A stretch of DNA of 35,262 nucleotides from a virus: the IMG/VR virus record IMGVR_UViG_3300045988_103437; one strand, written 5' to 3'. Position numbers and translations under genes: made by a program. Under the pieces are notes generated by a model that saw only the letters and a program-made list of their open reading frames with translations, was not told the origin of the DNA and did no database searches. Below, piece by piece: positions 2,164 to 35,022 of this stretch (positions within the stretch are counted from its first letter, which is position 1; each line of letters starts with the position of its first letter).

Positions 2164-3489
2164 ATGGAAAGAAAATCTAAATTACAGATGATAGCAGTGG
2201 ACAAACTGCACCCACATCCACAGAACCCTCGAAAGGTTATCGGCGATGTGACGGAGCTTGCGGAATCTATCAAGGCGAACGGAATTTTGCAGAACCTTAC
2301 CGTTGTGCCAAACAATGATAACGAGGATGATTTTACTGTTATAATTGGACACCGTAGGCTTGCGGCCGCAAAGCAGGCAGGATTAACTGAACTGCCTTGT
2401 GCAATCGTAGAAATGACGGAGAAAGAACAGCTGTCAACGATGCTCACCGAGAATATGCAGCGGTCAGACTTGACTGTATACGAAGAGGCTAAGGGCTGTC
2501 AGCTCTTGCTTGACCTCGGTGATACGGTTGCAGAGATTGCCGAGAAAACAGGATTTTCAGAAAGCAAAATAAGGCGGAGAGTAAAACTCTGTGAGCTTGA
2601 TGAAGAAGCTTTCAAAGAAAGCCAGCTCAGACAACCCACATTGGCAGACTACGAGCGTCTGAATCAGATTAAGAATATTGATGCAAGAAATGAATTGCTT
2701 AAATCAATCGGAACGAATAATTTCGACAATCTTTTGTATTCTGCCGTGCAAAAGCAGGAGACAGATGAAGAAAAAGAAAAAATTGAAAAGCTCTGTCTTG
2801 AACATGGAATGACTAAAGTGCAGAAATATAACGAAATTCCAGACAATTACAAAGACACAGGAATATTCGCGCTCAAAGATTTGATCGGTAAAGACTTTGC
2901 GGACGGCAGGAACAGATATTTTTATTTTGCTTACGGCTCAACCGTCTACATTTACGCAGAAGCATTGGAAAAGCAGGAAAAGAACGATGCCGAAGAAGAA
3001 AAGCGAAAGCTTGAAGAGCAGAGATGGGATGAGCTTGAAGAACAGACGGAAGAAATAGACGAACGCTGTGAGGCTCTCAGAAGAGACTTTATGCTTGATG
3101 CGAATTTCAATGACAGCAACAAGAAGCAGGAGCTTGTGAAATTTATAGTCGCCCAATTGGCGGCAGGCGTCATTAACAAGGCATACAGATTTGGCGAAGT
3201 AGTCGAGAATCAAGATGATGAAAACACGGACAGCTACATCAACGAACACTGGAGCGATAACAGCGGTAGAATGCTTATGGCGACGGCATACGCTTTGTGC
3301 CAAAGAACTTATGAAAATTTAAGCTTTATTTATGTAGACTATAACAGCAAAACGATCAGCCGAAAAAACAGCCCGGATTTAAACAAATTTTATGCTTTAC
3401 TCTGCAAACTCGGCTATGTGATGAGTGACGAAGAGATACAGCTCCGTGACGGCACACATCCGATTTTTACCTCCGGTGAAGTCAAATGA
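2164..3489 (+). CDS. ParB-like N-terminal nuclease/partition domain protein.
   Basis: ATG 2164 follows a GGAG RBS. The ParB N-domain pattern is IAVDKLHPHPQNPRK...GILQNLTV...IIGHRRLAAAKQAG. The track extension from 2056 runs through the inverted repeats. Confidence 0.8.
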   Translation: MERKSKLQMIAVDKLHPHPQNPRKVIGDVTELAESIKANGILQNLTVVPNNDNEDDFTVIIGHRRLAAAKQAGLTELPCAIVEMTEKEQLSTMLTENMQRSDLTVYEEAKGCQLLLDLGDTVAEIAEKTGFSESKIRRRVKLCELDEEAFKESQLRQPTLADYERLNQIKNIDARNELLKSIGTNNFDNLLYSAVQKQETDEEKEKIEKLCLEHGMTKVQKYNEIPDNYKDTGIFALKDLIGKDFADGRNRYFYFAYGSTVYIYAEALEKQEKNDAEEEKRKLEEQRWDELEEQTEEIDERCEALRRDFMLDANFNDSNKKQELVKFIVAQLAAGVINKAYRFGEVVENQDDENTDSYINEHWSDNSGRMLMATAYALCQRTYENLSFIYVDYNSKTISRKNSPDLNKFYALLCKLGYVMSDEEIQLRDGTHPIFTSGEVK

Positions 3490-3490
3490 A

Positions 3491-3522
3491 AGAACATTTT
3501 GCTGATGTCCGCAAAATGTTCT
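3491..3522 (+). terminator. Perfect 12-bp stem-loop directly after the ParB-like stop. It may be a terminator or an RNA-processing structure.
   Basis: The arms are agaacattttgc and gcaaaatgttct with an 8-nt loop. There is no U-tract, so termination is uncertain. Confidence 0.35.
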
Positions 3523-3544
3523 TGTGCTGAAAATTTAATAAGTT

Positions 3545-3741
3545 AATCACACAACTGCACTTGTGAGATTATATATATCTCATTTTATACCTTCTTTCTT
3601 TAATTGTATTTTCGGGTAGGTGCAGATGCCCGAACAAATTAACCGATAACAAGCTCTGCACAGCTTGTTATATAAAACTCGTTTACTCCTCTTTAAATAA
3701 ATTCTGACATTGAAAGCGGAGCAGGTGCAGATGGTCCGCTT
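3545..3741 (+). ncRNA. Tandem pair of two-hairpin modules (H0-H1 and H2-H3). This is a candidate structured RNA or ssDNA element.
   Basis: H0 is 3545-3570 and H2 is 3646-3671; both have 10-bp stems and a CTGCAC loop. H1 is 3611-3634 and H3 is 3714-3741; both have 6-7-bp stems and loops containing AGGTGCAGATG. The stems differ in sequence while the loops are identical. Confidence 0.6.
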
Positions 3742-3752
3742 AGGTGAAGAAA

Positions 3753-3989
3753 ATGGATGTAAACATTATCACAATAAAATTTAAAGACGGTTCAAGCATA
3801 TATATTGATGATGTTTCTGATTATGCCATAAATAACAATGTTGTCAAAGTTAATAAAAATGGATATAATCAGTTTTTTAATTTCGACGAAGTTAGATATA
3901 TCGGAAGAACATTTGATTTAGAACCTGAAATATACAATGCAATGAAGAGGTGGGACAACTCCAATGTTTCACATTCAAAACTGCTATAA
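3753..3989 (+). CDS. Small hypothetical protein at the start of the AT-rich island.
   Basis: ATG 3753 follows an AGGTGA RBS. The track start, GTG 3744, lies inside that RBS. Confidence 0.55.
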   Translation: MDVNIITIKFKDGSSIYIDDVSDYAINNNVVKVNKNGYNQFFNFDEVRYIGRTFDLEPEIYNAMKRWDNSNVSHSKLL

Positions 3990-4075
3990 GAAGGTATGAA
4001 TCTATGCAAGAAGAGGCGCTTTTACAAATCATTAAAAAACAGCTTAATGAGATCGTAAGGTGGTAGATTTACAAA

Positions 4076-5263
4076 ATGTCGAGGCTAAATAAAACATGGA
4101 CGGCCGATGAAATAGATTATCTTGTATCTGCTTGGGGCAACGTTAATATGGCCACTATAACAAAACACCTTGATAGATCCGAATGTGCGATAAGGCTAAA
4201 AGCCGGTAAGTTAAACTTAGGACCTTTCTTGACTAATGGCTATAGATACATCACAATAAGCAATCTTTATAAACTCATTCGTCCAAACACTTCTGCCAGT
4301 TATCTAAAAACATCGTGGGTAAAAAATAGGAATCTGCCTACTCACAACATATCAAGAAGTTCAAAAACAAATTTCATCGTTGTTTACATAGATGAATTTT
4401 GGATGTGGGCAGAGAAAAATCAATATTTTTTAGATTTTTCGAAACTTGAAAGATATCAATTAGGACCTGAGCCTGATTGGGTAAACCCAAAACGAGAGGC
4501 AGACATATTAAGGAACAGTCTTATTAAAGCAACTCCGTGGACAAACAGAGAAGATAACCTTCTCAAAGAATTGCTTGTAAAGCAAAAGTATGGTTATAAA
4601 GAACTATCACAAATATTGTGCCGTAGCGAAGGAGCTATACAGCGCAGAATTAATGACCTAAACATCAAATACCGACCGATAAAAGCTGATAACCATCAAA
4701 AATGGACTGAATCAGAATACACTTTACTTGGCGAAATGATTAAATGCGGAAGCAAATATGAAGAAATATCCGACAGAATCGGTCGATCAGTTAAGGCTAT
4801 CAGAGGACGTGTGTTCGATAAGTATCTCACGGAAAATCTTGATAAAGTGCGAAATTACATAGGCAACGGAAACTTTGGAGACGGAACGCCTGACAAGCCG
4901 TTAAAATACAAGCGACTTATGTCGAACGAAGAAAAAAACAAAGCTAATCTATTGTTATCAATCATCGCAGGAGATTTACGTTGTGTTGCAAAAATGAATT
5001 CAAATGTTGATGAGGAATACAGTAAATATTGGCAAAAGGATATGTGCTTGAATTGGAGCAATATCAAAGGCTGTATTGCATGCGAAAAAGATTGCGACAG
5101 TTGCACATCATTTAAAAGAATACCCGTACAACATTGTAAGCGTTGTGGAAAAGATTTTTTTGAACGAAAAAGTGCTGATTTTTGTAGCGATTGCAGGTCA
5201 GCTCGCCTATATCAAGCGCGAAAAAAATATGCAATACTGCAACAAAAGCAAAACCGAAAGTAA
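4076..5263 (+). CDS. Protein with three Myb/SANT-like repeats and a Cys-rich C-terminus, likely DNA-binding.
   Basis: Three internal repeats share WT-x2-E-x2-L...RS-x2-AI-x2-R (WTADEIDYL.., WTNREDNLL.., WTESEYTLL..). The C-terminal about 60 aa carries more than 10 Cys (CIACEKDCDSC...CKRCG...CSDC). Confidence 0.65.
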   Translation: MSRLNKTWTADEIDYLVSAWGNVNMATITKHLDRSECAIRLKAGKLNLGPFLTNGYRYITISNLYKLIRPNTSASYLKTSWVKNRNLPTHNISRSSKTNFIVVYIDEFWMWAEKNQYFLDFSKLERYQLGPEPDWVNPKREADILRNSLIKATPWTNREDNLLKELLVKQKYGYKELSQILCRSEGAIQRRINDLNIKYRPIKADNHQKWTESEYTLLGEMIKCGSKYEEISDRIGRSVKAIRGRVFDKYLTENLDKVRNYIGNGNFGDGTPDKPLKYKRLMSNEEKNKANLLLSIIAGDLRCVAKMNSNVDEEYSKYWQKDMCLNWSNIKGCIACEKDCDSCTSFKRIPVQHCKRCGKDFFERKSADFCSDCRSARLYQARKKYAILQQKQNRK

Positions 5264-5276
5264 AGAAGGCGTATCT

Positions 5277-6284
5277 ATGGATGATAAAACAGAATTCGTA
5301 CGAATGGCAACAACACAATGCCTAAAGTATATGTCTGTGAATGAGGCAAACAAGGTTGAGCAAATTTTGTCAGTCTTGTTGACAAAATATTCTCTAAAAA
5401 AAGAAACCTACGCTTTATCCACCGAAACAGTTACTCCGAATCAAAAATTAGTAAATACTTTTTTAGCCATTAAAAAAATTAGTGGTTTAACTGACAAAAG
5501 TCTAAAAGCTTATAACAATGAAATACAAATGATGCTTAAAGCAATAAATAAGCCTATCGCAGACATTAAGGTTAATGATATTCGTGCATACCTTGCTTTT
5601 GAACAATTAAATAAAAATGTATCAAACAGTTATCTTGATACAAAATTAAGATACTTAAAATCATTTTTTAAAACACTGAGAATTGAAGGCTACATACCAA
5701 ATGATCCGGCAGAAAAAATCACAAAAATAAAAGCTGAAAAGGTAATCAGAAAGCCGTTTACACCGATTGAAACCGAAAAAATTAGAGATGCTGCCGGAAA
5801 AGATTTGAGGTTGAAGGCAATCATAGAATTTCTATTATCGACAGGATGTCGAGTTACAGAAGTGGAAAATGCAAATCGCAGTGACATTAAAGATGATAAA
5901 CTGATTATCACAGGCAAGGGTAACAAACAAAGATACGTATATCTTAACGCACAAGCAAAACTTGCTTTAGAAAAATACGAAAATACGAGATCAGACACCA
6001 ACAATGCTTTGTTCGTTAGTAAAATTAAAATAAAAGGTGAATACAAAAGGCTTGAAAAAGGACAAATAGAAAATATCATTCGTGAGCTTGGTAAAGACAT
6101 TGGAATTGAAAATTGTCACCCACATAGATTCAGAAGAACCATGGCTACCGATGCCCTTAGAGCCGGCATGCCAATTGAACAAGTATCACTAATGCTTGGC
6201 CACGAAGAACTGACTACAACACAAATATACGCAAGATCTGATGAATCTGATGTTTATCAGGCACATCAAAAATATGTTAGATAA
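5277..6284 (+). CDS. Tyrosine recombinase, XerC/XerD- or Cre-like. This is a second recombinase, distinct from the attP-linked integrase.
   Basis: ATG 5277 follows an AGAAGG RBS. The catalytic region is GCRVTE...HPHRFRRTMAT...LGHEELTTTQIYAR. The track extension from 5076 overlaps the upstream gene. Confidence 0.85.
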   Translation: MDDKTEFVRMATTQCLKYMSVNEANKVEQILSVLLTKYSLKKETYALSTETVTPNQKLVNTFLAIKKISGLTDKSLKAYNNEIQMMLKAINKPIADIKVNDIRAYLAFEQLNKNVSNSYLDTKLRYLKSFFKTLRIEGYIPNDPAEKITKIKAEKVIRKPFTPIETEKIRDAAGKDLRLKAIIEFLLSTGCRVTEVENANRSDIKDDKLIITGKGNKQRYVYLNAQAKLALEKYENTRSDTNNALFVSKIKIKGEYKRLEKGQIENIIRELGKDIGIENCHPHRFRRTMATDALRAGMPIEQVSLMLGHEELTTTQIYARSDESDVYQAHQKYVR

Positions 6285-6290
6285 ATAGGA

Positions 6291-6491
6291 GTGATAATAT
6301 TGGCATTCCCCGAAAAATTAAAAGCGTTAAGGCTTAAACATAAATTAACGCAGGAAGAATTAGGTGAAAAGCTCTGTTTGAGCAGAACAAGTATATCTTA
6401 CTATGAGCAGGGAAAATTTGAACCTGATATTAATACCATAATAGCTATATCAGATTTATTTAAAATTTCGATAGATGAACTGTTGAAATGA
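6291..6491 (+). CDS. XRE-family HTH transcriptional regulator.
   Basis: The motif is LKALRLKHKLTQEELGEKLCLSRTSISYYEQGK. The start is GTG 6291 or, more likely, in-frame TTG 6300, which lies 8 nt after AGGAG. Confidence 0.8.
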   Translation: MIILAFPEKLKALRLKHKLTQEELGEKLCLSRTSISYYEQGKFEPDINTIIAISDLFKISIDELLK

Positions 6492-6500
6492 GGTTTAACA

Positions 6501-7052
6501 ATGAAAATAAAAAAAGCATTCGACATATGTAAAAAGAACAAGTCAATTTATATATCTATGACCAGCGAAGGAGAACAGTGGCTTTCGGACGGCAATGCGG
6601 TTTATCCAATTTTTGAACTGCCATTGTTGAATGAAAACTACATATGTAAGTTGTATGACATAAACGATGCGCAAAGAGATAAGATTACATTTATTATCGC
6701 AAAGGGAAAACCTGAAATTGATGTTAATGACAGTACAGCGGATGAGTCACTCGCTGAAATGTGGGACATCGAAATTGCGTATAATGGCAAAATATTATTA
6801 CCAATAAGCACATCTGAGGGACTTATGTTCATCGACCGTACTTATCTCAGTCCGTTTGCAGATATGCCGCAACAAGAAATGTCATTGACATTAAGATACA
6901 ATTCAAAAAGTGTTCCCTACTTTGCTATTAAATTCGGTATGATAGCCTACGGGTTTATAGCCGCCTGCGAAATCGTTGACGAAAATCTTGTAAACAGTTT
7001 GAAAGCACTCTACATCGAAAGTGAAATGATTTTGAAAAATGAGAAAGGATGA
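6501..7052 (+). CDS. Hypothetical protein.
   Basis: The 183-aa ORF has a GAGG RBS. No motif was recognised. Confidence 0.55.
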   Translation: MKIKKAFDICKKNKSIYISMTSEGEQWLSDGNAVYPIFELPLLNENYICKLYDINDAQRDKITFIIAKGKPEIDVNDSTADESLAEMWDIEIAYNGKILLPISTSEGLMFIDRTYLSPFADMPQQEMSLTLRYNSKSVPYFAIKFGMIAYGFIAACEIVDENLVNSLKALYIESEMILKNEKG

Positions 7053-7059
7053 CCTGCCG

Positions 7060-7431
7060 ATGAAGCAGTATGAAGCTGACCAACAGCGGAAGTTATTTCA
7101 ATGGACGACTTTCATCCGGGCAAAGTATCCTGAAATTGATTTGATGTTCCACATTCCGAACGGCGGAAGCAGGAACAAACTTGAAGCAGCCAACCTCAAA
7201 AAGCAAGGAGTAAAGGCAGGTGTGCCGGATTTGTTTTTGCCGGTTGGCCGTGGAAGCTATCACGGTCTGTTCATCGAATTAAAATACGGTAAGAATAAGC
7301 CGACTGAAAAACAAACCGAATGGCTTAAAAGCCTTAATGAACAAGGCTACGCTGTCGCTGTATGTTATGGTTGCGACGAGGCAAGCGAAAAAATATTAAA
7401 GTATTTGAAATTAGGTGAAATAAATGAGTGA
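7060..7431 (+). CDS. VRR-NUC domain nuclease (PD-(D/E)xK fold).
   Basis: The motif is GVKAGVPDLFLP...GLFIELK...TEKQTEWL. The start is ATG 7060 (RBS AAAGGA) or ATG 7039. Confidence 0.75.
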   Translation: MKQYEADQQRKLFQWTTFIRAKYPEIDLMFHIPNGGSRNKLEAANLKKQGVKAGVPDLFLPVGRGSYHGLFIELKYGKNKPTEKQTEWLKSLNEQGYAVAVCYGCDEASEKILKYLKLGEINE

Positions 7432-7629: not shown

Positions 7630-8010
7630 GTGATTTGGTTGAGTCAGAGAAAATCAATATCAAAAGCAACAAGGCTTAAAGTTTATGAGAAGTACAACGG
7701 AAGGTGTGCGTACTGCGGCTGTAAACTCGAATTAAAGGACATGCAGGTTGACCATATACAGAGCGTGTACTGGTACAATGGTGCGAATGACATCGAAAAT
7801 TATAATCCTGCTTGCAGAATGTGCAATTTTTATAAGTCAACAAGGACAGTCGAAGATTTAAAAAAAGAATTGGGTAAGTTGCTTTCGAGGCTCGAAAAAG
7901 TCTTTATTTTTCGATTAGCTGTAAAGTACGGATTGATTCAAAAGACGGACAATCCAATTGAATTTTACTTTGAAAAGCAAAATAAAACAGGTAAGGAGAG
8001 TGAAAAATGA
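7630..8010 (+). CDS. HNH endonuclease.
   Basis: The HNH motif is CAYCGCKL...VDHIQSV...NYNPACRMCNFYKS. The start is GTG 7630 or in-frame TTG 7639, which is better spaced from AAGGAG. Confidence 0.8.
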   Translation: MIWLSQRKSISKATRLKVYEKYNGRCAYCGCKLELKDMQVDHIQSVYWYNGANDIENYNPACRMCNFYKSTRTVEDLKKELGKLLSRLEKVFIFRLAVKYGLIQKTDNPIEFYFEKQNKTGKESEK

Positions 8011-8396
8011 TGAGAGAAATATTATTCAGAGGAAAATTCGGAAACGAATGGAAGTACGGATTTTTAAGTATTGAACCAAAAGGCTTGGTAATCAAAGAGC
8101 CATACAAGAACGAAAGCTCAAATGTGTGGCATATTGACGCTGACACAGTCGGACAGTACACAGGCTTGACTGACAAGAACGGCACAAAGATTTTCGAGGG
8201 AGATATCATTGATTTTCTTTACCGCTCGGGTTATGACGACTATGGAATCGTTCAGTATGATGCCGATGAAACTGAATTTGGATTTGTGTATAATTCAATC
8301 TACGAGGGATTAGGCAGACACTATCAATCAAAAGATATTGAAGTTATCGGCAATATTTTTGACAATCCAGGTTGGGGAGGAGATAACGATGACTAA
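8007..8396 (+). CDS. YopX-family phage protein.
   Basis: MREILFRGK...VGQYTGLTDKNGTKIFEGDII is the typical YopX pattern. Confidence 0.7.
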   Translation: MMREILFRGKFGNEWKYGFLSIEPKGLVIKEPYKNESSNVWHIDADTVGQYTGLTDKNGTKIFEGDIIDFLYRSGYDDYGIVQYDADETEFGFVYNSIYEGLGRHYQSKDIEVIGNIFDNPGWGGDNDD

Positions 8397-8580
8397 CTTT
8401 GAAAAAATCAAATCAATGAGCAAAGAGCAGATGACACATTTTGTGCTTGATGCATTAAATAACAATGTTTGCGATTATTGCAAAGATTGCGATACTTCTT
8501 GTCTTGAAAATGAAGATTGTCTTGAAAATAAAGAAATTATAAAAAAATGGCTTGAAAGTGAGGCAAGCAACAATGGCTGA
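8389..8580 (+). CDS. Small hypothetical Cys-containing protein.
   Basis: ATG 8389 follows GGGGAGGAG. The track ORF from 8338 overlaps the YopX gene. Confidence 0.5.
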   Translation: MTNFEKIKSMSKEQMTHFVLDALNNNVCDYCKDCDTSCLENEDCLENKEIIKKWLESEASNNG

Positions 8581-9280
8581 ATCCAAAAAAACAGTTGCAG
8601 CGGAAATGCAGGACAAGCCGACAGCGGCAGAAACATTGTCAGAACTCGACCGGCTTGTGATAGGTTTTATTGACGGTGCCCTTGATGTGGCTACGCTCAA
8701 TAGCTTGGATATGTTAAATCGTTGGTTAGTGTTGTCAATGTCAGCCATATACAGCTGCACAAAGATAGGCTTGCTATCAGCCAAGTCTTGTGTCAAGGCC
8801 AAATACAAGCTCCTACAAGAGTATCGCAGGTTTAGGACTGACACTTTTTTTGCAAACAAGGAACACATCGAATGGATAAAAAGGACGAAAGAAACTTCTT
8901 GCAAATTAACGGAGTTGTCAAAGGCGATTGCCGAACACGATACTAATGTATTGCAAATTGCTTTACAGATAATTGACCTGCTCACCAAGCATGATGTTTA
9001 TAACAAACTTTTCATTTTGTCAGACGCATCGGATACATATAAAGAAAAATGTTTAAAAACACTAACCGAAAACGATACAGCATTTTTGAATGAGTTCGGC
9101 AACATACCTTTTGTGGATTTGCTTTTTAAATTTTATAAATCGACAGAAGAAACGAGAGCATCAGAAATTTTTAAAGAATTGGATGCTGATAACATTAGAA
9201 AGGTAGCTTGTCACGTGCCGGTTAAGTCTGACAATTGTCAGGGTATCGCAAAAAGCTATAAAGAATACTTTGGCATTTAA
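8573..9280 (+). CDS. Hypothetical protein.
   Basis: ATG 8573 (MAESKK..) overlaps the upstream stop. No motif was recognised. Confidence 0.55.
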   Translation: MAESKKTVAAEMQDKPTAAETLSELDRLVIGFIDGALDVATLNSLDMLNRWLVLSMSAIYSCTKIGLLSAKSCVKAKYKLLQEYRRFRTDTFFANKEHIEWIKRTKETSCKLTELSKAIAEHDTNVLQIALQIIDLLTKHDVYNKLFILSDASDTYKEKCLKTLTENDTAFLNEFGNIPFVDLLFKFYKSTEETRASEIFKELDADNIRKVACHVPVKSDNCQGIAKSYKEYFGI

Positions 9281-9621
9281 TAAGGCAATATTCTTGCCGG
9301 CTGCAAAATCTTAAAGGAAATTCAAATCAAGTTAATCCTATATTAAAAAAGTAATCAAAGCGACGACTTCCGTTTTGATTAAGCTGTTACAAAAGAATGC
9401 ACCAAAAATCAAACACACAATTGCAGCGGCAAGGTTGCACAGAGCAGTAACTCAAGTGGTCAGATTGGGTTACTGCATATTTATATCATCTGATTTTTTA
9501 ATGAGAAAATAGAATAATAAATAGTCACAAATAAAAGGGTTGAAATACCCTTTAACTATCCCGCTCAAGGAATTAATTAAGTGACCGTTTTAGTTTTTAC
9601 ATATATAATGGGAAGTTTAAT

Positions 9622-10359
9622 ATGTTTACATACAAGTGTGAAATTAAATCAGGCCCTTTGCTTGAGGTTAAATATTACAAGTCCATTCGCAAACGTAATA
9701 AGAAAAATCTTGCTCGACAAATCAATCAATCCAGAACAAACGAAAAGCAAGCCAAAGCAAACCGTATCAGAGGAGAACAACACACGCAGAGGCTTATCCT
9801 CTGCAACTTTTCTGAGGGCGACTGGTTCGCAAGATTCTCCGCTCCGTTTGGCGAGTTTACCGAAGATGAATTTGAGAGGGTTGTCTCAAATTTTTTTAAA
9901 AGAGTAAAACGCAGAACAGAGAAAAAACAAATCAAGTTTAAATACATCGGGTTCTGCGAATGCGGCAAACTCGGAAAGAATTGGCATTTGCATATTGTGA
10001 TTGAGGATTGCGCAAGAGAAATATTAACAAAATGCTGGCCGTGGAAAAACGGAATCAATTTCACTCCGCTCTACCAAGACGGAAACTATGCTGACCTTGC
10101 AAAATACATACGCAAAGATGTCAATGGTAAGAAGCGCTTGAAAACATCTCGCAATCTCAATAAGCCTGAGGTCAAAGTTGTTGAAGGAAAAAAACGAGAA
10201 TACAGAAAACTCGAACGAGGTGAGGCTTTGCCTTGTCCCGAAGGATATTATTTTTACAAAGACGAAATGTGGATAAATGACTTCACGGGTGCGTCTTTTC
10301 ATTTTACTTACTTGGCCAATAGCCATAAACACAAGAAAATCGGAGGTGCAAGGATTTGA
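9622..10359 (+). CDS. HUH-superfamily rolling-circle replication initiator (Rep)-like protein.
   Basis: The HUH motif is NWHLHIVIE, followed by the Tyr motif YADLAKYIRKD (YxxK). There is a possible motif 1 at WFARFSAPF. A 341-nt non-coding region lies upstream. Confidence 0.6.
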   Translation: MFTYKCEIKSGPLLEVKYYKSIRKRNKKNLARQINQSRTNEKQAKANRIRGEQHTQRLILCNFSEGDWFARFSAPFGEFTEDEFERVVSNFFKRVKRRTEKKQIKFKYIGFCECGKLGKNWHLHIVIEDCAREILTKCWPWKNGINFTPLYQDGNYADLAKYIRKDVNGKKRLKTSRNLNKPEVKVVEGKKREYRKLERGEALPCPEGYYFYKDEMWINDFTGASFHFTYLANSHKHKKIGGARI

Positions 10360-13183: not shown

Positions 13184-13885
13184 ATGGTGAAACTTTTTCA
13201 GGGCGATTGCCTTGAATTAATGAAAAACATTCCCAATAACAGCGTTGACCTGTTACTGACAGATCCGCCTTATGTGTTAAACACAAAGGGTGGTGGAACT
13301 GTAAACAAGAAAATGAAATTAAGTGAATCTTTAGCGGATGTCGAGAAAGCAAAAATAATTAATGGGTATGATATTGAACTTTTCGGACAAGAATTTTTGC
13401 GAGTTATGAAAGAAATCAATGCTTATTTTTGGTGCAATAAAGCACAAATATATGATTATTTAAAATTTTATGTCGGGCAACTTAAATGCAAATTTGATAT
13501 TATTTGCTGGCACAAAACGAACGCTTTGCCCACCTATTCAAATAAATATTTAAGCGACACTGAATATTTACTTTATTTCAGAAAAGGAAAAGGTAAGTGC
13601 TTTCCCCACAGCTACGAGGATGCAAAAACATATTATTTAAGTGCTTTAAACCTAAAGGACAAAAAAATGTGGAAACATCCAACCATTAAACCTCTTAACA
13701 TTACTGAAAAAATAATCCGAAACAGTTCAAAAGAAAATAACACTATTTTAGATCCGTTTATGGGAAGCGGAACAACAGGCGTTGCCTGCATAAATACAAA
13801 CCGCAAATTTATCGGTGTTGAGCTTGACGAAAAGTATTACAAAATTGCTGAGGAAAGAATAAAAAACGCTGAAAAAGGCAGGTGA
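13184..13885 (+). CDS. Orphan DNA methyltransferase (N6-adenine or N4-cytosine, beta-class motif order).
   Basis: The catalytic motif LLLTDPPY precedes the AdoMet motif ILDPFMGSGTTGVA. The gene is visibly AT-rich and sits between terL and the portal gene. Confidence 0.85.
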   Translation: MVKLFQGDCLELMKNIPNNSVDLLLTDPPYVLNTKGGGTVNKKMKLSESLADVEKAKIINGYDIELFGQEFLRVMKEINAYFWCNKAQIYDYLKFYVGQLKCKFDIICWHKTNALPTYSNKYLSDTEYLLYFRKGKGKCFPHSYEDAKTYYLSALNLKDKKMWKHPTIKPLNITEKIIRNSSKENNTILDPFMGSGTTGVACINTNRKFIGVELDEKYYKIAEERIKNAEKGR

Positions 13886-24434: not shown

Positions 24435-25600
24435 TGTACCCTATTTTGTATAACATCGCTGACTATTACAAAAATCCAACACCATTGTTTGAATCTAATG
24501 GTTTCGGTTTTTTGACTGAATGCACCGAGTTTTTGACGACAATGGAGCAAAATGGCACATACAGCTTTAGCATGAAAATAAAAAGCACGGATAAGCTCGC
24601 GCCGAAAATTAAAATAACTTCATATGTCAAAGCGAAAGTAAATAATGTATCCGAGCCACAGTATTTTTTTGTCACAAAAATAGAAGTCGATAAAAACGGT
24701 GATTTAACCGTGTCGGGCGAACATGTGTCAAGAATGTTCTTTCAGAACGGAACAATTCCTCGTGCAATGGACGGATCGATGTATGGCACGCCGAAAGAAC
24801 TCATTGACCACTTTATGCGAGACTACAGCATAGTAGGAGAACCTCTGCATATGTGGTTTACGGAAGCCCCATATAAGTGGTTTAGCTTCAGTTCATCAAT
24901 CACAGCAAAGAAAAGAATTTACTTGGGCTATTCACAGGCGGTAAAGTTTGAGGATATCTTCAAAGACGATGACGAAGGGTTGATAAATCAGTTTGACGGT
25001 GTTCTGTATTTTAACAATTTTGATATTCATTTTGAAAAAATCACCACAGCAGGTGCGAAAAGCGGCTATCGCATAGCTTTCGGCGCTAATGTGTCAGATT
25101 ATAAGCAGACTGCTGAAATCGGCAACTACTATACACATGTTATGCCTTACGCACGATGCAACACTACTAATAATAAAGAAGTCGTCGTGTCAAGCCCTGA
25201 ACCATATGAAACAGGTTTAAAACGGAGTATTAAAAACACATATTTATTTGATTGCACCAATAAAATCAAGAAATACACTTTAAACCCAAGCACCGGCGAA
25301 AACTACGAAGAAGTCAGAGATGCCTTGCGATATGCGGTCGCTAATTATAACTATTCGACGGAACAAACATCGGAAACACTGAGCATAAAAGTAACTCTCG
25401 AAAATGAGCTTACAAAAATGCACGCAATCAAACTTTATGACGAAGTGACGGTTGTAATGCCGGACGGCACTAATCTTAGCCGAAGAATTTCAAAAACGGT
25501 CTACGATAGTGTATCTCAGAAATACAAAGAAATTACAATCGGCGACTTAAGTATGTCAATGTCTGATTTGCTCAAAATTCAAAGGAGGTTTAAAAGATAA
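24434..25600 (+). CDS. Tail-associated protein (Tal / minor structural protein N-terminal domain).
   Basis: It follows Dit, and GGAGG precedes ATG 24434. Confidence 0.65.
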   Translation: MYPILYNIADYYKNPTPLFESNGFGFLTECTEFLTTMEQNGTYSFSMKIKSTDKLAPKIKITSYVKAKVNNVSEPQYFFVTKIEVDKNGDLTVSGEHVSRMFFQNGTIPRAMDGSMYGTPKELIDHFMRDYSIVGEPLHMWFTEAPYKWFSFSSSITAKKRIYLGYSQAVKFEDIFKDDDEGLINQFDGVLYFNNFDIHFEKITTAGAKSGYRIAFGANVSDYKQTAEIGNYYTHVMPYARCNTTNNKEVVVSSPEPYETGLKRSIKNTYLFDCTNKIKKYTLNPSTGENYEEVRDALRYAVANYNYSTEQTSETLSIKVTLENELTKMHAIKLYDEVTVVMPDGTNLSRRISKTVYDSVSQKYKEITIGDLSMSMSDLLKIQRRFKR

Positions 25601-26583
25601 TGGCAATTAGTATGAAACATAAATCAATTACAATTGATGTAAATGACCGCAACGCACCGAATGTTGTTGGTGTTGTCAATGTCAACGATAAAGCAACACG
25701 CTATCTTGATGTTACTTTAACGGCAAGCGGTGAAAAATTGACCTTTGCAGATTGCACAGTAACTGCAACCTTTGCAACTGATGGATATTTAATCTCAGAT
25801 TCAGTCGCTTGCATACTGAACAGCACGGCAGATGTTATTACTGTTCCGCTCGAAGATTTCAAGTCTATGTCGGGTTTCCTGGCAATCGAAATTAAGATTG
25901 CAAACGGTGAAACGCAGGTATTAAACACTCCGCTGACCTTAAAAGTCATGGTAACTCCGAGCCTCGCCGAAAACAGCAAGATAAACAACGAAAGTGCTGG
26001 CAGTTTTGTCGAAATCAGCCGAGAGATTGCCACAGCAAGAGGCGGTCAAAATTCGCTTGGAGCAAGGCTTGATAAAACAGACAAGAGTATTGCCCGAAAG
26101 CTCGATTCAATGCCGTTCGACAGCGAACCAAAGAATAACAGCCCGTGTTATCTGACAAGCGGTACGGTTTACAACGCTCTGCTTGTTAAAGCAGATAAAA
26201 CCGCCTTGGCGACTAAATACGATTCGTCAAATATTGAAAGTGGTACATCAACACTCACACCGTATTCAACCGTCACCGATAAAATCAAAAGTGCAAACTG
26301 TACATATAAGACGATTGGTGACATCGTAATCGTCAGTGCAACGGTCAAAATGAACGCAGTATCTCTTGGTGGCAATAGCATGTGTCCGCTGATTGATTTG
26401 CCGTACAAATGTATTTCCGAGGACAATGTTTTTTGTGTCGGTATTTCAAACCTTGGCAAACTCTTTAAATTTGCCATTCCGAAAAATAACACTTGGCTAC
26501 AGTTTTCGACTCAGGATAAGACCGTATATACATTCGCAGACGGCGAGCAAATTAATGTGATTTGCTTGTACAAAATTAAATAA
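25600..26583 (+). CDS. Baseplate or receptor-binding protein with a BppU-like N-terminal domain.
   Basis: The N-terminal sequence ITIDVNDRNAPNVVGVVNVNDKATRYLDVTLTASGEKLTFADCTV resembles BppU N-domains, and it is the last large tail gene. Confidence 0.6.
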   Translation: MAISMKHKSITIDVNDRNAPNVVGVVNVNDKATRYLDVTLTASGEKLTFADCTVTATFATDGYLISDSVACILNSTADVITVPLEDFKSMSGFLAIEIKIANGETQVLNTPLTLKVMVTPSLAENSKINNESAGSFVEISREIATARGGQNSLGARLDKTDKSIARKLDSMPFDSEPKNNSPCYLTSGTVYNALLVKADKTALATKYDSSNIESGTSTLTPYSTVTDKIKSANCTYKTIGDIVIVSATVKMNAVSLGGNSMCPLIDLPYKCISEDNVFCVGISNLGKLFKFAIPKNNTWLQFSTQDKTVYTFADGEQINVICLYKIK

Positions 26584-26597
26584 CGGAGGTAAAAATT

Positions 26598-26846
26598 ATG
26601 GAACTTAAAGAAAAAATCACACTTGATATGCTCACAAAGGACAGCGTGTCGGTACTCAGACAGCAGTTTTTGACCTTTAACGGTGAAGAAATGCAGGTCG
26701 GCGGAAACATCCGCAACGCATACATGAACAGCAAATCGGGCAGAGAACAGCTCAAAACGGTGCTGTCTGATGAATACTATAACGCTGTCATGGCTGTATG
26801 GGGTGATAATCCAACCGTTGATAAGCCGATAGAAAGTGAGGTGTAA
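26598..26846 (+). CDS. Small hypothetical protein between the tail and lysis modules.
   Basis: A GGAGG RBS precedes the 82-aa ORF. Confidence 0.55.
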   Translation: MELKEKITLDMLTKDSVSVLRQQFLTFNGEEMQVGGNIRNAYMNSKSGREQLKTVLSDEYYNAVMAVWGDNPTVDKPIESEV

Positions 26847-26849
26847 ACA

Positions 26850-27302
26850 ATGAAAGAAAACATTTTACAAGCATTATTTGCCACTGTGTGCGGAGCAATT
26901 GTCGCATATCTTAACATCTTACTTGTGCCGTTTGCTGTGATGATTGCGGTAATGATTATCGACTATATCACAGGAATGGCACAGGCATACATCAGCCACA
27001 CGCTTAACAGCCGTGTCGGGGTAACTGGTATCATCAAAAAGGTAGGCTATATCGTAGCCGTAGCGGTCGGTATTGTTGCCGACTATCTCATCAGCTCGGC
27101 ACTTGTCAACTGCGGAATCGATCTGCGGATTAACTACTGTATCGGAATGATTGTGACGATTTGGTTTATCATCAACGAATTAATTTCAATCCTTGAAAAC
27201 CTTTCGGAAATCGGAATCCCATTGCCGAAATTTTTGGTGTCAATCGTCAAGAGATTAAAGACAACAGTCGAAACGAAAACAGATTCAGAAAGTGAGGAAT
27301 GA
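26850..27302 (+). CDS. Holin (phage holin family 4-like, TcdE-like).
   Basis: It has several transmembrane segments, the motifs DYITGMAQAY and GIIKKVGYIVAVAV, and lies directly upstream of the endolysin. Confidence 0.8.
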   Translation: MKENILQALFATVCGAIVAYLNILLVPFAVMIAVMIIDYITGMAQAYISHTLNSRVGVTGIIKKVGYIVAVAVGIVADYLISSALVNCGIDLRINYCIGMIVTIWFIINELISILENLSEIGIPLPKFLVSIVKRLKTTVETKTDSESEE

Positions 27303-28144
27303 CTATGAGTAATTCAAAACTTGTAAATTACACTAAATTATCGCCAAATCACAGCGGTAAACGCACACACAGCATTGACCGCATTACTCCGCATTGCGTT
27401 GTAGGTCAGTGCTCTGTTGAAACTCTCGGAAATATTTTTCAGAATACAGCTTGTGAGGCAAGCTGTAATTACGGTATCGGCTATGACGGTAGAGTGTTGC
27501 TCTGCGTTGATGAAGGCAATCGCTCTTGGTGTAGTTCATCAAACGCAAATGACCAGAGGGCAGTCACAATCGAATGTGCAAGCGACACGGTAGCTCCGTA
27601 CACCATGAACAGCAAGGTGTATAACAAACTCGTTGCACTCTGCGTTGACATCTGCAAGCGTAACGGCAAGACTAAACTGCTTTGGTTCGGTAACGAGGAC
27701 AAGACTTTAAACTATTCGCCAAAATCAGGTGAAATGGTCTTGACTGTACATAGGTGGTTTGCAAATAAATCTTGCCCAGGTGATTGGCTCTATAACAGGC
27801 TCGGCAATCTTGCAGACGAAGTAACTGCACAGCTCAGTGGAAAAACAACAGATACGGAGGAAGAAGAAATGATTAAATTTGGTGCACATAACACAGCAAC
27901 ACTTGCATTCAAAAAGCAGTTGATTACTCTTTACAACATGAAAATAATCAAAACAAAAGTCGATAATTCAAACGGTTTCGGTGACGGCACTTTAAAGGCT
28001 GTTAAAGAGGCACAGAGAGCAGGTAAGGTCACAGTTGACGGCATTGTCGGCGAGAAGACAATCAATGCTATCTATCATCTTATCAATGACGGTATTCGAG
28101 CAAAAGACAGCAAAATCGCCAACGCTAAAAAAGCACTCAGCTGA
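27299..28144 (+). CDS. Endolysin: N-acetylmuramoyl-L-alanine amidase (amidase_2/PGRP-like) with a C-terminal peptidoglycan-binding domain.
   Basis: The motifs are RITPHCVVG and VHRWFANKSCPG. The C-terminal GDGTLKAVKEAQRAGKVTVDGIVGEKT is PG_binding_1-like. Confidence 0.85.
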   Translation: MTMSNSKLVNYTKLSPNHSGKRTHSIDRITPHCVVGQCSVETLGNIFQNTACEASCNYGIGYDGRVLLCVDEGNRSWCSSSNANDQRAVTIECASDTVAPYTMNSKVYNKLVALCVDICKRNGKTKLLWFGNEDKTLNYSPKSGEMVLTVHRWFANKSCPGDWLYNRLGNLADEVTAQLSGKTTDTEEEEMIKFGAHNTATLAFKKQLITLYNMKIIKTKVDNSNGFGDGTLKAVKEAQRAGKVTVDGIVGEKTINAIYHLINDGIRAKDSKIANAKKALS

Positions 28145-28197
28145 TTAAAACCTAAAGGACATTTTTAATGTCTTGACAAACACATAATTGCAAAAAT

Positions 28198-28236
28198 ATT
28201 CCCCTCACACTGTCATTAAAGATAGGTGAGGGGAAT
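28198..28236. terminator. Bidirectional intrinsic terminator between the convergent endolysin and accessory operon.
   Basis: The 11-bp arms are attcccctcac and gtgaggggaat. An A-run lies on the left and a T-rich run on the right. Confidence 0.75.
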
Positions 28237-28242
28237 TTATTA

Positions 28243-28431
28243 TTATTTATTATTTTCTGTTGCAATCCTTTCAAGCTCGCGGATTATGAGCTTTTCAACA
28301 TATGCGGGTGGTTTCCTCGTGCCGGTTTCCCAATCACCGATAGTTCTCTTTGGGATTTCGAGCAAATCAGACATTTTAGCTTGTGTTAATCCTGCTTTCT
28401 TTCGTGCCTCTTTAATCGTCAATCTTATCAA
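28243..28431 (-). CDS. Small XRE-type HTH regulator, the last gene of the accessory operon. It is a candidate autorepressor, Aca-like protein or antitoxin.
   Basis: The motif is AGLTQAKMSDLLEIPKRTIGDWETGTRKPP. The gene overlaps the upstream gene by 20 nt. Confidence 0.8.
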   Translation of the reverse strand: MIRLTIKEARKKAGLTQAKMSDLLEIPKRTIGDWETGTRKPPAYVEKLIIRELERIATENNK

Positions 28432-29664: not shown

Positions 29665-29720
29665 CACAGTTCGAAAAGTCCGAAAGTGCCGATAAACACT
29701 GACTTTTTCAAAACAAACCG

Positions 29721-29770
29721 CATGACTGTTAATCATGATGTCACTGGTTCGAGCCCAGTTGGGGGAGCCA
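29721..29770 (+). other. attP core: the 3' portion of a tRNA-Asn(GUU) gene, from the anticodon arm to CCA.
   Basis: Anticodon arm catga/ctGTTaa/tcatg, variable loop atgtc, T-arm actgg/ttcgagc/ccagt, acceptor tggggga, then g and cca. No D-arm or 5' acceptor strand lies upstream. Confidence 0.8.
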
Positions 29771-29778
29771 CGAGAGAA

Positions 29779-29949: not shown

Positions 29950-31188
29950 TTACGCCAATAATTTGATCGCATTGTAAAGAGTGTCAACCTCTTGGATGAT
30001 GTAGTGGTCAATATCAACTTTGTAATCTGTATGCCCCATGAGAGCAATGATGTCCTCTTCTCGTGCGCCTGCCGCTGACATGCGGGTCGAAAATGTTCGA
30101 CGACAGGAGTGCGGAGTGAACTCATCACCCAAGCCGAGAGCCTGCATCGCCGGGCGAAAACCGTATTTCAAGAAATAATCCTTGTTCATCGCTTTGCCAA
30201 ACTCTGAACCTTCGTGTGTTCGACAGAAGATTGTTTCACCTTTGTGATTTATACAGTTCTCAACCAATTTTAAAATTTTAGGGTGGATAGGTACAACACG
30301 ATTTTTGCCGGCATCTGACTTTATGCCTGCGATAAAGTAAGGTATTCCTTGCTCACTTACATGGTATTGGTCAGTTGTAAGTGACAAAAATTCGCTCACT
30401 CTAAAATTGAGGTAGCACATTATATAAACATAATCGGCATAAGGTACTCTGCCTATGTTTTGTCGTATTAGCTCAAGCTGCACATCGGTAAAGCGTGTAG
30501 CGTTTACCTCTTCGGGTTCGGGTAGTTCTATAAATGTGCCGTAGTCTTTATTTACAATATCTTCTTTCATTGCAAAATCGTAAAGACTTGTGACGAAGCA
30601 TTTAATCTTATGTAGCGCCGAGTAGCCTAAGCCTTGGCAGATTTTCGGTGTGTTCGTGACCTTGTAAGTACCTTTGCCGTTTGGTGAAAGATATTTCAGT
30701 TTTCCGCCTGCGCCGACCTCGTGATGTGGATTTTCGTAATAATCCACGATGTACTGATAGTCTGATGTGCGCAAATCCCTAAATTTACGCTTGTACAAGG
30801 GCTTTAGCTTGATATAAGCGCTTGCGTAGTTGCTTTTTACGCTGTCACCAAGTTTTTTATATGCTTTAGTTTTTACCCATTTATCGTGTAATTGCTCAAG
30901 TGTCATATTAAAGCCATTGACGGGATTGTACTCATAATCTTTGAGTGCGTTTTCTGCCTCTCGCTTTGTGGCGAAAGTTCCCAAATAAACTTGTTTCCCT
31001 GTGACAGAGCTTGCAGCGGCATACGGTTTTGATTTGCTGTCTTTGCGAATGTAAATGCTTCCTGTACCTTTTGTTCTGCGCCTGTTTTTCGGCTTGTCAG
31101 ATGATTGATTTTTACCGCAGTAAGGACAATACGCAAAATTGTCCTGCAATTCTCGGTTACACCGTCGGTTTATACATTTTTTCATCAT
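29950..31188 (-). CDS. int: Tyrosine integrase with an N-terminal zinc ribbon and an AP2-like arm-binding domain.
   Basis: The ATG at 31188 follows AAGGAG. Motifs are CINRRC...CPYCG, GSIYIRKD...YLGTFATKREAENAL, and the catalytic HSCRRTFSTRM...LMGHTDYKVDIDHY. The track extension to 31257 runs into the promoter. Confidence 0.9.
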   Translation of the reverse strand: MMKKCINRRCNRELQDNFAYCPYCGKNQSSDKPKNRRRTKGTGSIYIRKDSKSKPYAAASSVTGKQVYLGTFATKREAENALKDYEYNPVNGFNMTLEQLHDKWVKTKAYKKLGDSVKSNYASAYIKLKPLYKRKFRDLRTSDYQYIVDYYENPHHEVGAGGKLKYLSPNGKGTYKVTNTPKICQGLGYSALHKIKCFVTSLYDFAMKEDIVNKDYGTFIELPEPEEVNATRFTDVQLELIRQNIGRVPYADYVYIMCYLNFRVSEFLSLTTDQYHVSEQGIPYFIAGIKSDAGKNRVVPIHPKILKLVENCINHKGETIFCRTHEGSEFGKAMNKDYFLKYGFRPAMQALGLGDEFTPHSCRRTFSTRMSAAGAREEDIIALMGHTDYKVDIDHYIIQEVDTLYNAIKLLA

Positions 31189-31228
31189 TTTGCTCCTTAA
31201 AAAAGGGTGCAAAAATCCCCTGCAAAAT

Positions 31229-31258
31229 ATTGTAATTTTCGCAGGGGTGTGGTACAAT
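31229..31258. promoter_or_regulatory. Overlapping face-to-face promoters: minus-strand P(int) and a + strand promoter.
   Basis: On the + strand: TTGTAA (31230-35), 17 nt, TACAAT (31253-58). On the - strand: TTGTAC (31252-57), 17 nt, TACAAT (31229-34). The inverted repeat cccctgc/gcagggg (31217-23 and 31241-47) overlaps them. Confidence 0.5.
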
Positions 31259-33994: not shown

Positions 33995-34192
33995 ATGAAT
34001 TTGTATTTAGCTATCGGGTCGTATCTTGAGAATAACGGCATCACGCAAACATATTTATCAGAACGTTCAGGGATGACAACCAATGCACTTAACTTATCGT
34101 TAAAAGGTAAACGCAAACTCACAGCCGATGAATATATCAAAATTTGTGATGCTTTAAAAGTCCCTTACGATTTGTTTGTGAAAAAATTGTGA
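33995..34192 (+). CDS. Cro-like XRE HTH regulator.
   Basis: ATG 33995 follows AGAGGTG. The motif is ITQTYLSERSGMTTNALNLSLKGKRKLT. The gene is divergent from the repressor. Confidence 0.75.
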   Translation: MNLYLAIGSYLENNGITQTYLSERSGMTTNALNLSLKGKRKLTADEYIKICDALKVPYDLFVKKL

Positions 34193-34202
34193 ACAGCTTA
34201 AC

Positions 34203-34286
34203 GAAAGGAATGGTAAAAATGGCACTAACCATATATGCGGTAGTTGCTACCGTAGTAGCAGTAATTGCAATCATAAAAGCTGTAAA
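34203..34286 (+). repeat. 84-bp direct repeat, copy 1. It has 3 mismatches against 34939..35022.
   Basis: The gaaaggaatgGtaaaaatggcactaaccatatatgcggtag...gctgtaaa string was aligned by eye. Confidence 0.9.
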
Positions 34287-34407
34287 ATGGAAAATTGCTA
34301 CAAGAGCAATGGTGGTTTATTGTACGAAAAATTTTAGGATACCCACAGACAAAGAACTTGCCGACTGCTCCAAAGAAGCCGCCGGCAAGACAATAAGATT
34401 TAAGTAA
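34219..34407 (+). CDS. Small single-pass membrane protein (62 aa), paralogue A.
   Basis: ATG 34219 follows AAAGGAA. The transmembrane helix is MALTIYAVVATVVAVIAIIKAV. Confidence 0.6.
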   Translation: MALTIYAVVATVVAVIAIIKAVKWKIATRAMVVYCTKNFRIPTDKELADCSKEAAGKTIRFK

Positions 34408-34841: not shown

Positions 34842-34938
34842 CAAGAAGGTTACAGCAGAAGGGTTTTTGGGAATATGTCGGGTGCTTGATGTTGATCCAA
34901 GGCAGTTTTTTAAGCAGTCTGCTTAACTTATTACCTCA

Positions 34939-35022
34939 GAAAGGAATGATAAAAATGGCACTAACCATATATGCGGTAGTTGCTACCGTAGTAGCAGTAG
35001 TGGCAATCATAAAAGCTGTAAA
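34939..35022 (+). repeat. 84-bp direct repeat, copy 2.
   Basis: See copy 1 at 34203..34286. Confidence 0.9.

Follow-up and report, generated by a model that had tools for sequence, protein, structure and literature searches.

Second recombinases in temperate phages are usually labelled 'integrase' and passed over. The virus record IMGVR_UViG_3300045988_103437 from IMG/VR, a stretch of 35,262 nucleotides (nt) that is called the window from here on, carries such a gene in an AT-rich block at 3744-6491. This raises two questions: is the block one acquired unit, and what does its tyrosine recombinase do? A preliminary description, made from the letters alone, had suggested a separately acquired island of four genes. 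As the task of the recombinase it had offered resolution of multimers, site-specific inversion or mobility of the island itself.

The reading preferred here is tentative, at a probability of roughly 45%. It holds that the block is an early-operon hot-spot of independently assorting cassettes in a temperate siphophage of gut Clostridia, and that the recombinase is an accessory invertase or resolvase of the shufflon-like kind. The first cassette would be orf78, which stands in place of a short, probably inactive HsdM-like gene (sM). The second would be a protein with several helix-turn-helix (HTH) parts, combining Myb repeats, a winged helix and a zinc cluster; it is most likely an early DNA-binding regulator, and comes with or without the recombinase. 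The third would be the recombinase itself, armless and of XerC/D type, and the fourth a small XRE regulator. These genes, and the one that follows them, lie as listed, with lengths in amino acids (aa) and base composition as content of guanine plus cytosine (GC).

3753-3989, plus strand: orf78, 78 aa from an ATG start; an orphan gene of 28.5% GC with no family match
4076-5263, plus strand: predicted multi-HTH DNA-binding protein of 395 aa, called the Myb protein here
5274-6284, plus strand: tyrosine recombinase of XerC/D type, 336 aa; likely start ATG 5274 with a GAAGG ribosome-binding site
6291-6491, plus strand: XRE regulator of Cro/C1 type, 66 aa (HTH_3 E 3.7e-17, 62.6 bits vs a cut-off of 23)
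6501-7052, plus strand: orf183 (PHROG 24518), the last part of the low-GC zone

All four genes that had been named for the block are present. The mechanical list of open reading frames (ORFs) starts orf78 at GTG 3744, giving 81 aa, and the longest recombinase ORF starts at TTG 5076, overlapping the Myb gene.

The composition is as had been described, both in GC and in GC at third codon positions (GC3). The block has 34.2% GC, vs 39.4% for the whole window; the flanking ParB-like and VRR-NUC genes have 42.4% and 43.0%. This is essentially the lowest-GC stretch of 2.75 kb in the window: 0.3% of windows of the same size are as low, and it lies 2.7 standard deviations below the mean. GC3 is 0.26-0.33 in the block vs 0.47 in the flanks. 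The low-GC zone extends from ~3490 to ~7050; it also takes in the intergenic hairpin region and orf183.

A genomic island would be expected to be present or absent as one repeat-flanked unit, and 3744-6491 was not found to behave in this way. About 90 related loci from IMG/VR and metagenome assemblies were compared with the window (loci and contigs are given by L numbers). Among them no variant is bounded near 3.5 and 6.5 kb, and no direct or inverted repeats were found flanking the edges of the cassettes or of the block. The parts assort separately and the variants differ in their boundaries, so the block is not one unit. On these comparisons it looks like a recombination hot-spot, a patchwork of independently swapped phage genes rather than a single acquired island. 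The 'island' would then be ordinary phage mosaicism.

The numbers are as follows. There are 62 IMG/VR contigs with a Myb protein at least 81% identical to that of the window. The recombinase is present in 35 of these at 96-100% aa identity, and three have a 66-67% allele in the same position. Eight share the phage backbone and have the recombinase deleted or truncated; 16 carry the Myb gene alone, in a different backbone. Over all loci compared, the recombinase slot holds the 99% allele in 37 contigs and the 66% allele in seven.

The other states also vary. A recurrent deletion of 5269-6913 was mapped in L023, L028, L030 and L074, and L029 has the same gene pattern. This deletion removes the first 138 codons of orf183 and leaves its 3' stump, and the junction is without a site-like repeat. 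The deletion in L075 spans 5143-7011, in L034 and L067 the recombinase breaks off at 5846, and the XRE gene and orf183 are absent from L068. Two extra genes are inserted between recombinase and XRE in 11 contigs. The orf183 gene itself has two alleles, ~71% identical to each other.

Separate acquisition does hold up for one gene, if not for the block as a whole. The recombinase has a history of its own, as a discrete, sharp-edged cassette at ~5265-6300. In mismatch profiles, identity rises abruptly at ~5265 and drops at ~6300, and these are the edges of the gene. The 99% allele set consists of 37 contigs (35 of the IMG/VR group plus L005 and L006). Recombinase nucleotide identity to the window is 98.4-99.8% in the 37 contigs, with one (L066) at 96.4%. 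In the same contigs TerL is 80-89% identical to the window, the ParB-like gene 83-91%, orf183 70-100% and the Myb gene 82-99%.

Among the full-length recombinase alleles 35 of 36 are intact, and one has a premature stop. The variable codons are synonymous-only in 35 cases and amino-acid-changing in 19. Near-identity in diverged backbones, intact alleles and a dominance of synonymous changes together fit a functional gene under purifying selection, dispensable and recently spread among backbones. It would be a concrete example, at the level of a population, of single genes sweeping across phage backbones.

By its matches the protein belongs to the tyrosine recombinase superfamily, and is of the armless, XerC/D-like type. 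Pfam finds Phage_integrase (E 1.4e-31) and Phage_int_SAM_4 (E 8.4e-10) and no arm-binding family; about 60 N-terminal residues lie outside the domain matches. An alignment with XerD and XerA matches every one of the catalytic residues R, K, HxxR, H and Y, which bears out the intact R..HxxR..Y motifs that had been read from the sequence. The best named models are XerA, XerC and XerD, and all NCBIfam scores are under the equivalog cut-offs (188 vs 220, 157 vs 335 and 145 vs 330 bits). By these curated cut-offs it would not be an orthologue of chromosomal XerC, XerD or XerA.

Homologues of the recombinase at 42-69% identity are found among the early genes of temperate phages that differ widely and carry serine or tyrosine integrases of their own. 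Each of these that was looked up has a short N6_Mtase-type gene, the sM of this text, zero to two genes upstream (L011, L013, L078, L096, L097, L099-101, L104-105). Where identity is 40-45%, the homologues lie between hsdS genes, in Type I restriction loci that are complete (L003, L102). The highest identity in species-representative genomes is 47%. Of the 80 closest homologues there, at least 34 have HsdS nearby and 11 have sM adjoining, the rest lying on short contigs or having no neighbour detected. Neighbour genes were detected by tblastn and a few profiles.

On a rough neighbour-joining tree, the window recombinase forms a clade with 19 fetched homologues, and 18 of the 19 have sM close by. 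The 41 loci that have HsdM or HsdS as neighbours all lie elsewhere, in a much larger group, and the two groups separate cleanly. As far as such a tree goes, the hsdS-shufflon recombinases of Type I systems form the sister group of the sM-linked phage clade. The window would be an exception in its own clade, with sM replaced by orf78.

The recombinase belongs to a phage lineage not described before. It marks a coherent clade of phages, consistently tied to a truncated HsdM-like gene, and nearest to enzymes that switch restriction specificity. The preliminary description had not recognised the combination of genes, and no paper was found that describes the pairing of sM and recombinase or the family of the Myb protein with its zinc ribbon. 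A nucleotide search of 3400-7100 against 50,697 phage records gave no match, and PADLOC gave none for the recombinase, the Myb protein, orf78 or orf183.

The exchange of orf78 for sM can be read from the relatives. The body of orf78, 3757-3952, alternates with an sM gene of ~660 bp in most of them; orf78 is found in nine related contigs and sM in ~36. Both states have the same upstream hairpin array and the same first coding bases (ATGG). On this comparison the window appears to have lost sM, and orf78 to have replaced it.

The sM protein is 210-297 aa long. It matches positions 3-141 of the 311-position N6_Mtase profile, the first 45%, and no further. GQFFTP and the S-adenosylmethionine-binding motif are retained; the position of NPPY in HsdM is a variable xTPxx, and many members end shortly after it. 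This suggests a protein that is probably inactive. It is at the same time a conserved family with invariant motifs of its own. A literature search for truncated or orphan HsdM in phages found nothing relevant.

sM stands zero to two genes upstream of, or next to, the recombinase in L007-10 as well as in the phages named above, and in 11 genomes of different species. The stop and start codons of the two genes often overlap, and the pairing is kept across proteins that are 37-69% identical.

Could the recombinase simply be along for the ride? It would then be a largely neutral remnant of a phage-borne Type I locus, an hsdM fragment plus an invertase, spread by mosaicism and now without function. 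The window has after all lost its sM partner, relatives show deletions, truncation and one premature stop, and a related recombinase accompanies a full Type I system in the phage contig L003. Against this stand the 35 intact alleles out of 36 with their predominantly synonymous changes, the pairing with overlapping codons that persists down to 37% protein identity, and the invariant motifs of sM, which do not look like random decay. A neutral passenger is therefore judged improbable.

Three further observations on sM are recorded here. Faecalibacterium phage FP_Taranis (L186) and L001 have sM between an FtsK-gamma-like gene and a ParB-like gene; sM and ParB-like genes thus appear to be recurrent neighbours too. 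In two unrelated phages sM is split into two ORFs by a frameshift (L005 5285-5924, L011 6289-6997). A second, smaller tyrosine recombinase of 288-333 aa is found between sM and the main recombinase in L013 (6124-6990) and L078 (4214-5215), an arrangement reminiscent of paired XerC/XerD-type enzymes.

Among known systems, the invertases of hsdS shufflons in Type I restriction-modification (R-M) loci are the closest. They share the armless XerC/D-like architecture, the members between hsdS genes (L003, L102) are 40-45% identical, and they form the sister clade on the distance tree. An HsdM-derived gene is also the usual neighbour of the phage clade. There are differences as well: neither the window nor the phage-clade loci have hsdS, a full hsdM or hsdR, or inverted hsdS repeats. 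The phage HsdM-like partner is truncated, lacks NPPY, and is absent from the window.

Under the preferred reading, the recombinase would act in trans as an accessory invertase or resolvase, much like a shufflon recombinase, inverting or deleting DNA between short core sites. No conserved site, pair of inverted repeats or inversion variant was found near the gene in the window and eight other phage loci, so the core site is probably outside the block, possibly in R-M sequences of the host or of a phage. sM, and in some lineages the Myb/excisionase-type protein, would be partners of the recombinase. The module in the window would be incomplete, as sM is missing. A Type I hsdS locus of the host is an attractive possibility as the target, by analogy with the shufflons.

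A bolder version of this goes further, and is unlikely. It sees an early-gene module of temperate phages in gut Firmicutes, evolved from phase-variable Type I loci. The module would combine a dead, truncated HsdM-like protein with a shufflon-type recombinase, in some lineages joined by the Myb/excisionase-type protein. It would act on the R-M DNA or complexes of the host, for instance by titrating HsdS, or by shuffling hsdS anew or locking it, and so serve as a device for anti-restriction or for reprogramming specificity. The copy in the window would be partly dismantled. Should such a module act on the restriction systems of its host, phages would have a new way to disturb host defence or to reprogram it. 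For the window alone the message is more modest, namely ordinary mosaicism with an incomplete recombinase module.

Where, then, might the recombinase work on its own genome? Three structured elements come into question.

3550-3741, plus strand: hairpin array of four hairpins, H1 3550-3565, H2 3611-3634, H3 3646-3671 and H4 3714-3741
3490-3523, plus strand: 13-8-13 hairpin directly after the stop codon of the ParB-like gene, with no U-tract
5358-5394, plus strand: 15-7-15 inverted repeat in the 5' part of the recombinase gene, GAGCAAATTTTGTCA GTCTTGT TGACAAAATATTCTC

The loops of the array carry GTGCAG or CTGCAC in alternating orientation. The window has 20 GTGCAG sites, and four of these are packed into 176 bp here. 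Its DNA fold has a z-score of -6.2. Rfam, run on the window, gave no family above threshold; the hairpin region yielded a sub-threshold match to a small RNA and nothing else.

The array is kept in relatives. In L008 and L036 the stem of H1 shows a compensatory change (CACAA...TTGTG to CGCT...AGCG); L036 and L077 have lost the stem of H2 and retain the loop motif. L078 has a different backbone and no ParB gene, and there two similar hairpins, with GTGCGG/CCGCAC loops, precede a series of sM, the two recombinase genes (RecA and RecB in that locus) and XRE. Conservation in relatives and the similar hairpins before sM in L078 are the grounds for assigning the array to the upstream region of the operon. 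It would be a conserved regulatory region for an operon that starts with orf78 here and with sM in most relatives. The ParB-like protein had also been considered as owner of the array; this is weakened by L078, which has array-like hairpins before sM without a ParB gene.

The array had been proposed as the site of the recombinase, and the evidence leans the other way. It is unchanged in L023, which has no recombinase, it is the same beside the 99% and the 66% alleles, and it is absent from other phages of the recombinase clade. It is probably an operator, or a structure in RNA or single-stranded DNA, and not a crossover site. Nor is it tied to the Myb protein, because no GTGCAG clusters were found near the Myb genes of recombinase-less phages.

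These elements also bear on the idea that the block, or recombinase plus XRE, is a self-mobile element that uses the array or the cassette edges as its sites. The sharp edges and the near-identity in diverged backbones are what a mobile gene would give, and the low GC, two deletions in the array between direct GCAGGTGCAGATG repeats, and a phage (L156) with XRE and a 3' remnant of the recombinase at another genomic position could be added to the case. Yet the edges are gene boundaries, as is usual in phage mosaicism, and neither cassette nor block is flanked by repeats. The recurrent empty state keeps the 3' stump of orf183, with a siteless junction, and the two array deletions have different crossover points. 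Throughout the phage group of the window the recombinase also stays in one fixed slot. Self-mobility is judged very unlikely, both for the gene and for the island that had been suggested.

The other two elements are palindromes of the shape expected for a dif-type site, which has two 11-bp arms and a 6-8 bp spacer; neither is conserved in relatives or in other alleles. The 3490-3523 hairpin is part of a 43-bp insertion; L005, L007, L008 and L010, the relatives aligned with it, do not have this insertion. The 5358-5394 repeat does have the architecture of a recombinase core site, and its significance is doubtful: it is not conserved in the 66%, 69% or 60% alleles, nor in more distant homologues. 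The arms of the two resemble each other in 10 of 13 bases. As a pair of sites they were rejected, the shared arm motif not being enriched in the window (12 matches vs 9.7 expected) and neither element being conserved. No consistent inverted repeats were found around the recombinase in nine loci, the window and the eight other phage loci, and no conserved dif- or lox-like site was found beside the gene.

The recombinase is not the integrase of the phage. To see this, the layout of the genome is needed.

~0.1-11 kb, plus strand: early genes, rightward, including the ParB-like, VRR-NUC and HNH genes and a Rep of the Rep_ORF2-G2P type
11.2 kb to 28.1 kb: TerS and TerL, then head, tail and lysis genes
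Downstream of the lysis genes, leftward: lysogeny module with the 435-aa integrase, an ImmA-type protease and an HTH_3 repressor
29950-31257, minus strand: integrase, 435 aa
~29719-29777: attP core beside the 435-aa integrase, holding a tRNA 3' end

The first and last 79 nt of the window are the same (1-79 and 35184-35262, 100% identical). Because of this exact terminal direct repeat the window is a circular assembly of ~35.2 kb (about 35,183 bp). The gene layout matches a temperate siphophage. Immediately upstream of the integrase, 29730-29772 reads as a tRNA 3' end (GGTTCGAGCCC...GGGGAGCCA); ARAGORN finds no complete tRNA gene at attP. The attP core was placed at 29719-29777 because many related prophage contigs begin at 29719 or end at 29777. 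Relatives sit in contigs of 89-262 kb. An attP with a tRNA 3' end, prophage contigs that stop there, and relatives in such large contigs point to integration at a tRNA gene.

No prophage contig ends near 5.3-6.3 kb; the ends map to 29719-29777. The recombinase has no adjacent att site, so it is not a phage integrase with attP. The earlier statement that the phage has a dedicated integrase with attP, and that the recombinase is separate from it, is confirmed.

The same facts bear on whether the recombinase resolves multimers, or circularises the genome, of a replicating circular or plasmid-like phage, as Cre/loxP and XerS/dif do. The enzyme is armless and of Xer type with XerA, XerC and XerD as best named matches, ParB-like and rolling-circle-type Rep genes are present, and there are the two core-like palindromes. 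It shares with XerC/XerD/XerA and Cre the fold, the SAM-like core-binding domain and the complete R-K-HxxR-H-Y set. It differs from them in scoring below every Xer equivalog cut-off, in having no conserved dif- or lox-like site and in being dispensable, the gene being deleted or truncated in eight close relatives. One palindrome is an insertion specific to the window, and other alleles lack the second. A ParA gene was not seen, and the phage, with its own integrase and tRNA-type attP, has relatives that are integrated in large contigs. Because the phage integrates and the gene is often lost, this plasmid-type role, one of those first suggested, must be called doubtful.

Inversion of a distant segment of the phage is another matter. 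A tyrosine invertase separate from the integrase is known: Rin of Bifidobacterium prophages adjoins invertible receptor-binding-protein cassettes with 11-bp rix sites (PMC6109161). Like Rin, the window enzyme is a phage-encoded, XerD-like recombinase without an arm-binding domain, additional to a canonical integrase. Unlike Rin, it is in the early region, has no invertible cassettes, and has no inversion variants among the relatives.

A candidate segment does exist in the window, 2.76 kb with tail and lysis genes between 30-nt inverted repeats at 25558-25587 and 28346-28375, which are 87% complementary, and a 35%-identical homologue of the recombinase lies after the tail genes in Terrisporobacter phage TPELB_ph1. 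But in all related loci that cover 25558-28375 the order is colinear with that of the window. Two similar coding starts (MSDLL..., at the end or the start of an ORF) account for the repeat, inversion would not yield alternative tail-fibre ends, and the recombinase is 19 kb away. A Rin-like role is therefore most improbable. More generally, no inverted segment was found in ~140 related loci, which tells against site-specific inversion as it had been proposed.

The Myb protein was examined as the possible partner of the recombinase. It is predicted to begin with a first Myb/GcrA-like repeat, followed by a winged helix homologous to the excisionase-type HTH_17 (~residues 55-115) and by Myb repeats 2 and 3. 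After these come a helical region and two clusters of four cysteines each, the second a zinc ribbon; a basic helix forms the C-terminus.

The three internal repeats that had been reported are there. They can be read directly as W-T-x2-E/D ... RS-x2-AI-x2-R at residues 5-48, 152-198 and 207-250. Pfam Myb_DNA-binding is borderline, with 25.1 bits vs a cut-off of 24.4. A family profile compared with PDB finds c-Myb R2R3 at E 6.5e-6 and, weakly, GcrA at E 0.055. The AlphaFold model, with a mean pLDDT (predicted local distance difference test) of 86, has three three-helix bundles, and Foldseek ranks Reb1, SNAPc and c-Myb highest, each with a weak score (E 7e-3 or worse). The protein would thus have tandem three-helix repeats with regularly spaced tryptophans, as Myb/SANT-type proteins do, on evidence that runs from borderline to moderate.

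Likeness to c-Myb R2R3, Reb1, SNAPc and GcrA lies in these three tryptophan-marked repeats. The window protein differs from them in being bacterial-viral, and in its added winged helix and C-terminal zinc module of eight cysteines.

A cysteine-rich C-terminal domain had also been described, with more than 10 cysteines. The domain is present; the count is 10, in residues 303-373, out of 13 in the whole protein. Eight are conserved across 51 homologues (C324, C333, C340, C343 and C354, C357, C370, C373), and the second group is a CxxC...CxxC zinc ribbon.

The middle domain is modelled as a beta-alpha-alpha-beta-beta-alpha unit at residues 58-114. In the window protein this segment has no Pfam match of its own. 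Short homologues of 130-204 aa do better: their middle domain scores 30-41 bits for HTH_17 vs a cut-off of 27, which is the likeness to excisionase-type proteins. They align to residues 4-192 of the window protein, the one in L196 with 28% identity at E 2e-25.

The family has at least 759 homologues, and is rare among phages generally: 12 of 50,697 phage records match. Nothing relevant was found in the literature on Myb/zinc-ribbon proteins of phages. A large, uncharacterised family of phage proteins is hereby defined, with Myb repeats, an excisionase-type domain and a zinc ribbon, and more than 750 members.

The Myb protein had been proposed as an accessory or directionality factor of the recombinase, and this finds weak support. 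A profile of the N-terminal half of the family places a Myb-family gene within 6 kb of six of the 19 fetched sM-clade homologues, and three are directly adjacent. The gene orders are sM-Myb-recombinase in L007, a relative of the window, and in L192, and recombinase-Myb-sM in L196 and L232. Because the family is so rare, an association by chance is unlikely. This adjacency, and the HTH_17 matches of the short homologues, suggest that the Myb protein may assist the recombinase in some phages.

Other data do not fit an accessory factor alone. The Myb gene stands alone (4074-5242) in the 16 contigs of other backbones, at 91-97% nucleotide identity and without any recombinase. Homology there begins 2 bp before the ATG and ends 21 bp before the stop codon. 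In one such recombinase-less backbone the Myb gene is early in a rightward operon, ahead of replication genes. The conclusion drawn is that the Myb protein is a DNA-binding protein with a role of its own, probably in early regulation.

Several points weigh against the preferred reading of the locus, and they are gathered here. Neither a target site nor an inversion, an excision circle or a variant that depends on the recombinase was found, and what speaks for the proposed mechanism is phylogenetic neighbourhood; the window itself has neither sM nor any hsdS. The neighbour-joining tree is rough and without support values, with context labels that come from tblastn. Most related contigs are from one metagenome project, and the contig counts overstate the number of independent observations.

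The partnerships have exceptions too. sM is found without the recombinase in FP_Taranis and L001, and a few recombinase homologues have no detectable neighbour: L189 among the members of the sM clade, and outside it L002 and several more. In 13 of the 19 fetched clade homologues there is no Myb gene nearby, and the Myb gene is without a recombinase in ~17 more distant contigs besides the 16 near-identical ones. Finally, in L010 and L047 the DNA between the direct repeats of GCAGGTGCAGATG in H2 and H4 is gone. These two deletions are the one point in favour of the array as the site of the recombinase, which could have produced them; the crossover lies at a different place in each, as slippage or short-homology recombination would give.

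The XRE gene appears to be an optional neighbour of the recombinase. In another phage, L156, an XRE gene that is 89% identical in nucleotides stands on the opposite strand with the 3' remnant of the recombinase (7640-10275). Located after the endolysin, it adjoins two genes, one ATPase-like (414 aa) and one of 239 aa, and this group of genes looks like a defence-type moron.

Some minor observations concern the rest of the window. Between TerL and portal, at 13184-13885, there is a gene of 33.8% GC for a complete N6_N4 DNA methyltransferase (E 3.7e-32). In the relatives L109 and L115 the same gene, 95% identical, is beside the lysis module instead; because of this other position it appears to be a mobile orphan methylase.

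Further along, ~26855-27275 is replaced in most relatives, and in many IMG/VR contigs the sequence breaks off within 1-2 kb after the gene at 25600-26583. These breaks suggest that a hypervariable cassette separates the tail genes from the endolysin. Near the end of the window, an 84-nt direct repeat that is 96% identical (34203-34286 and 34939-35022) marks where two small paralogous ORFs begin (34189-34407 and 34886-35101).

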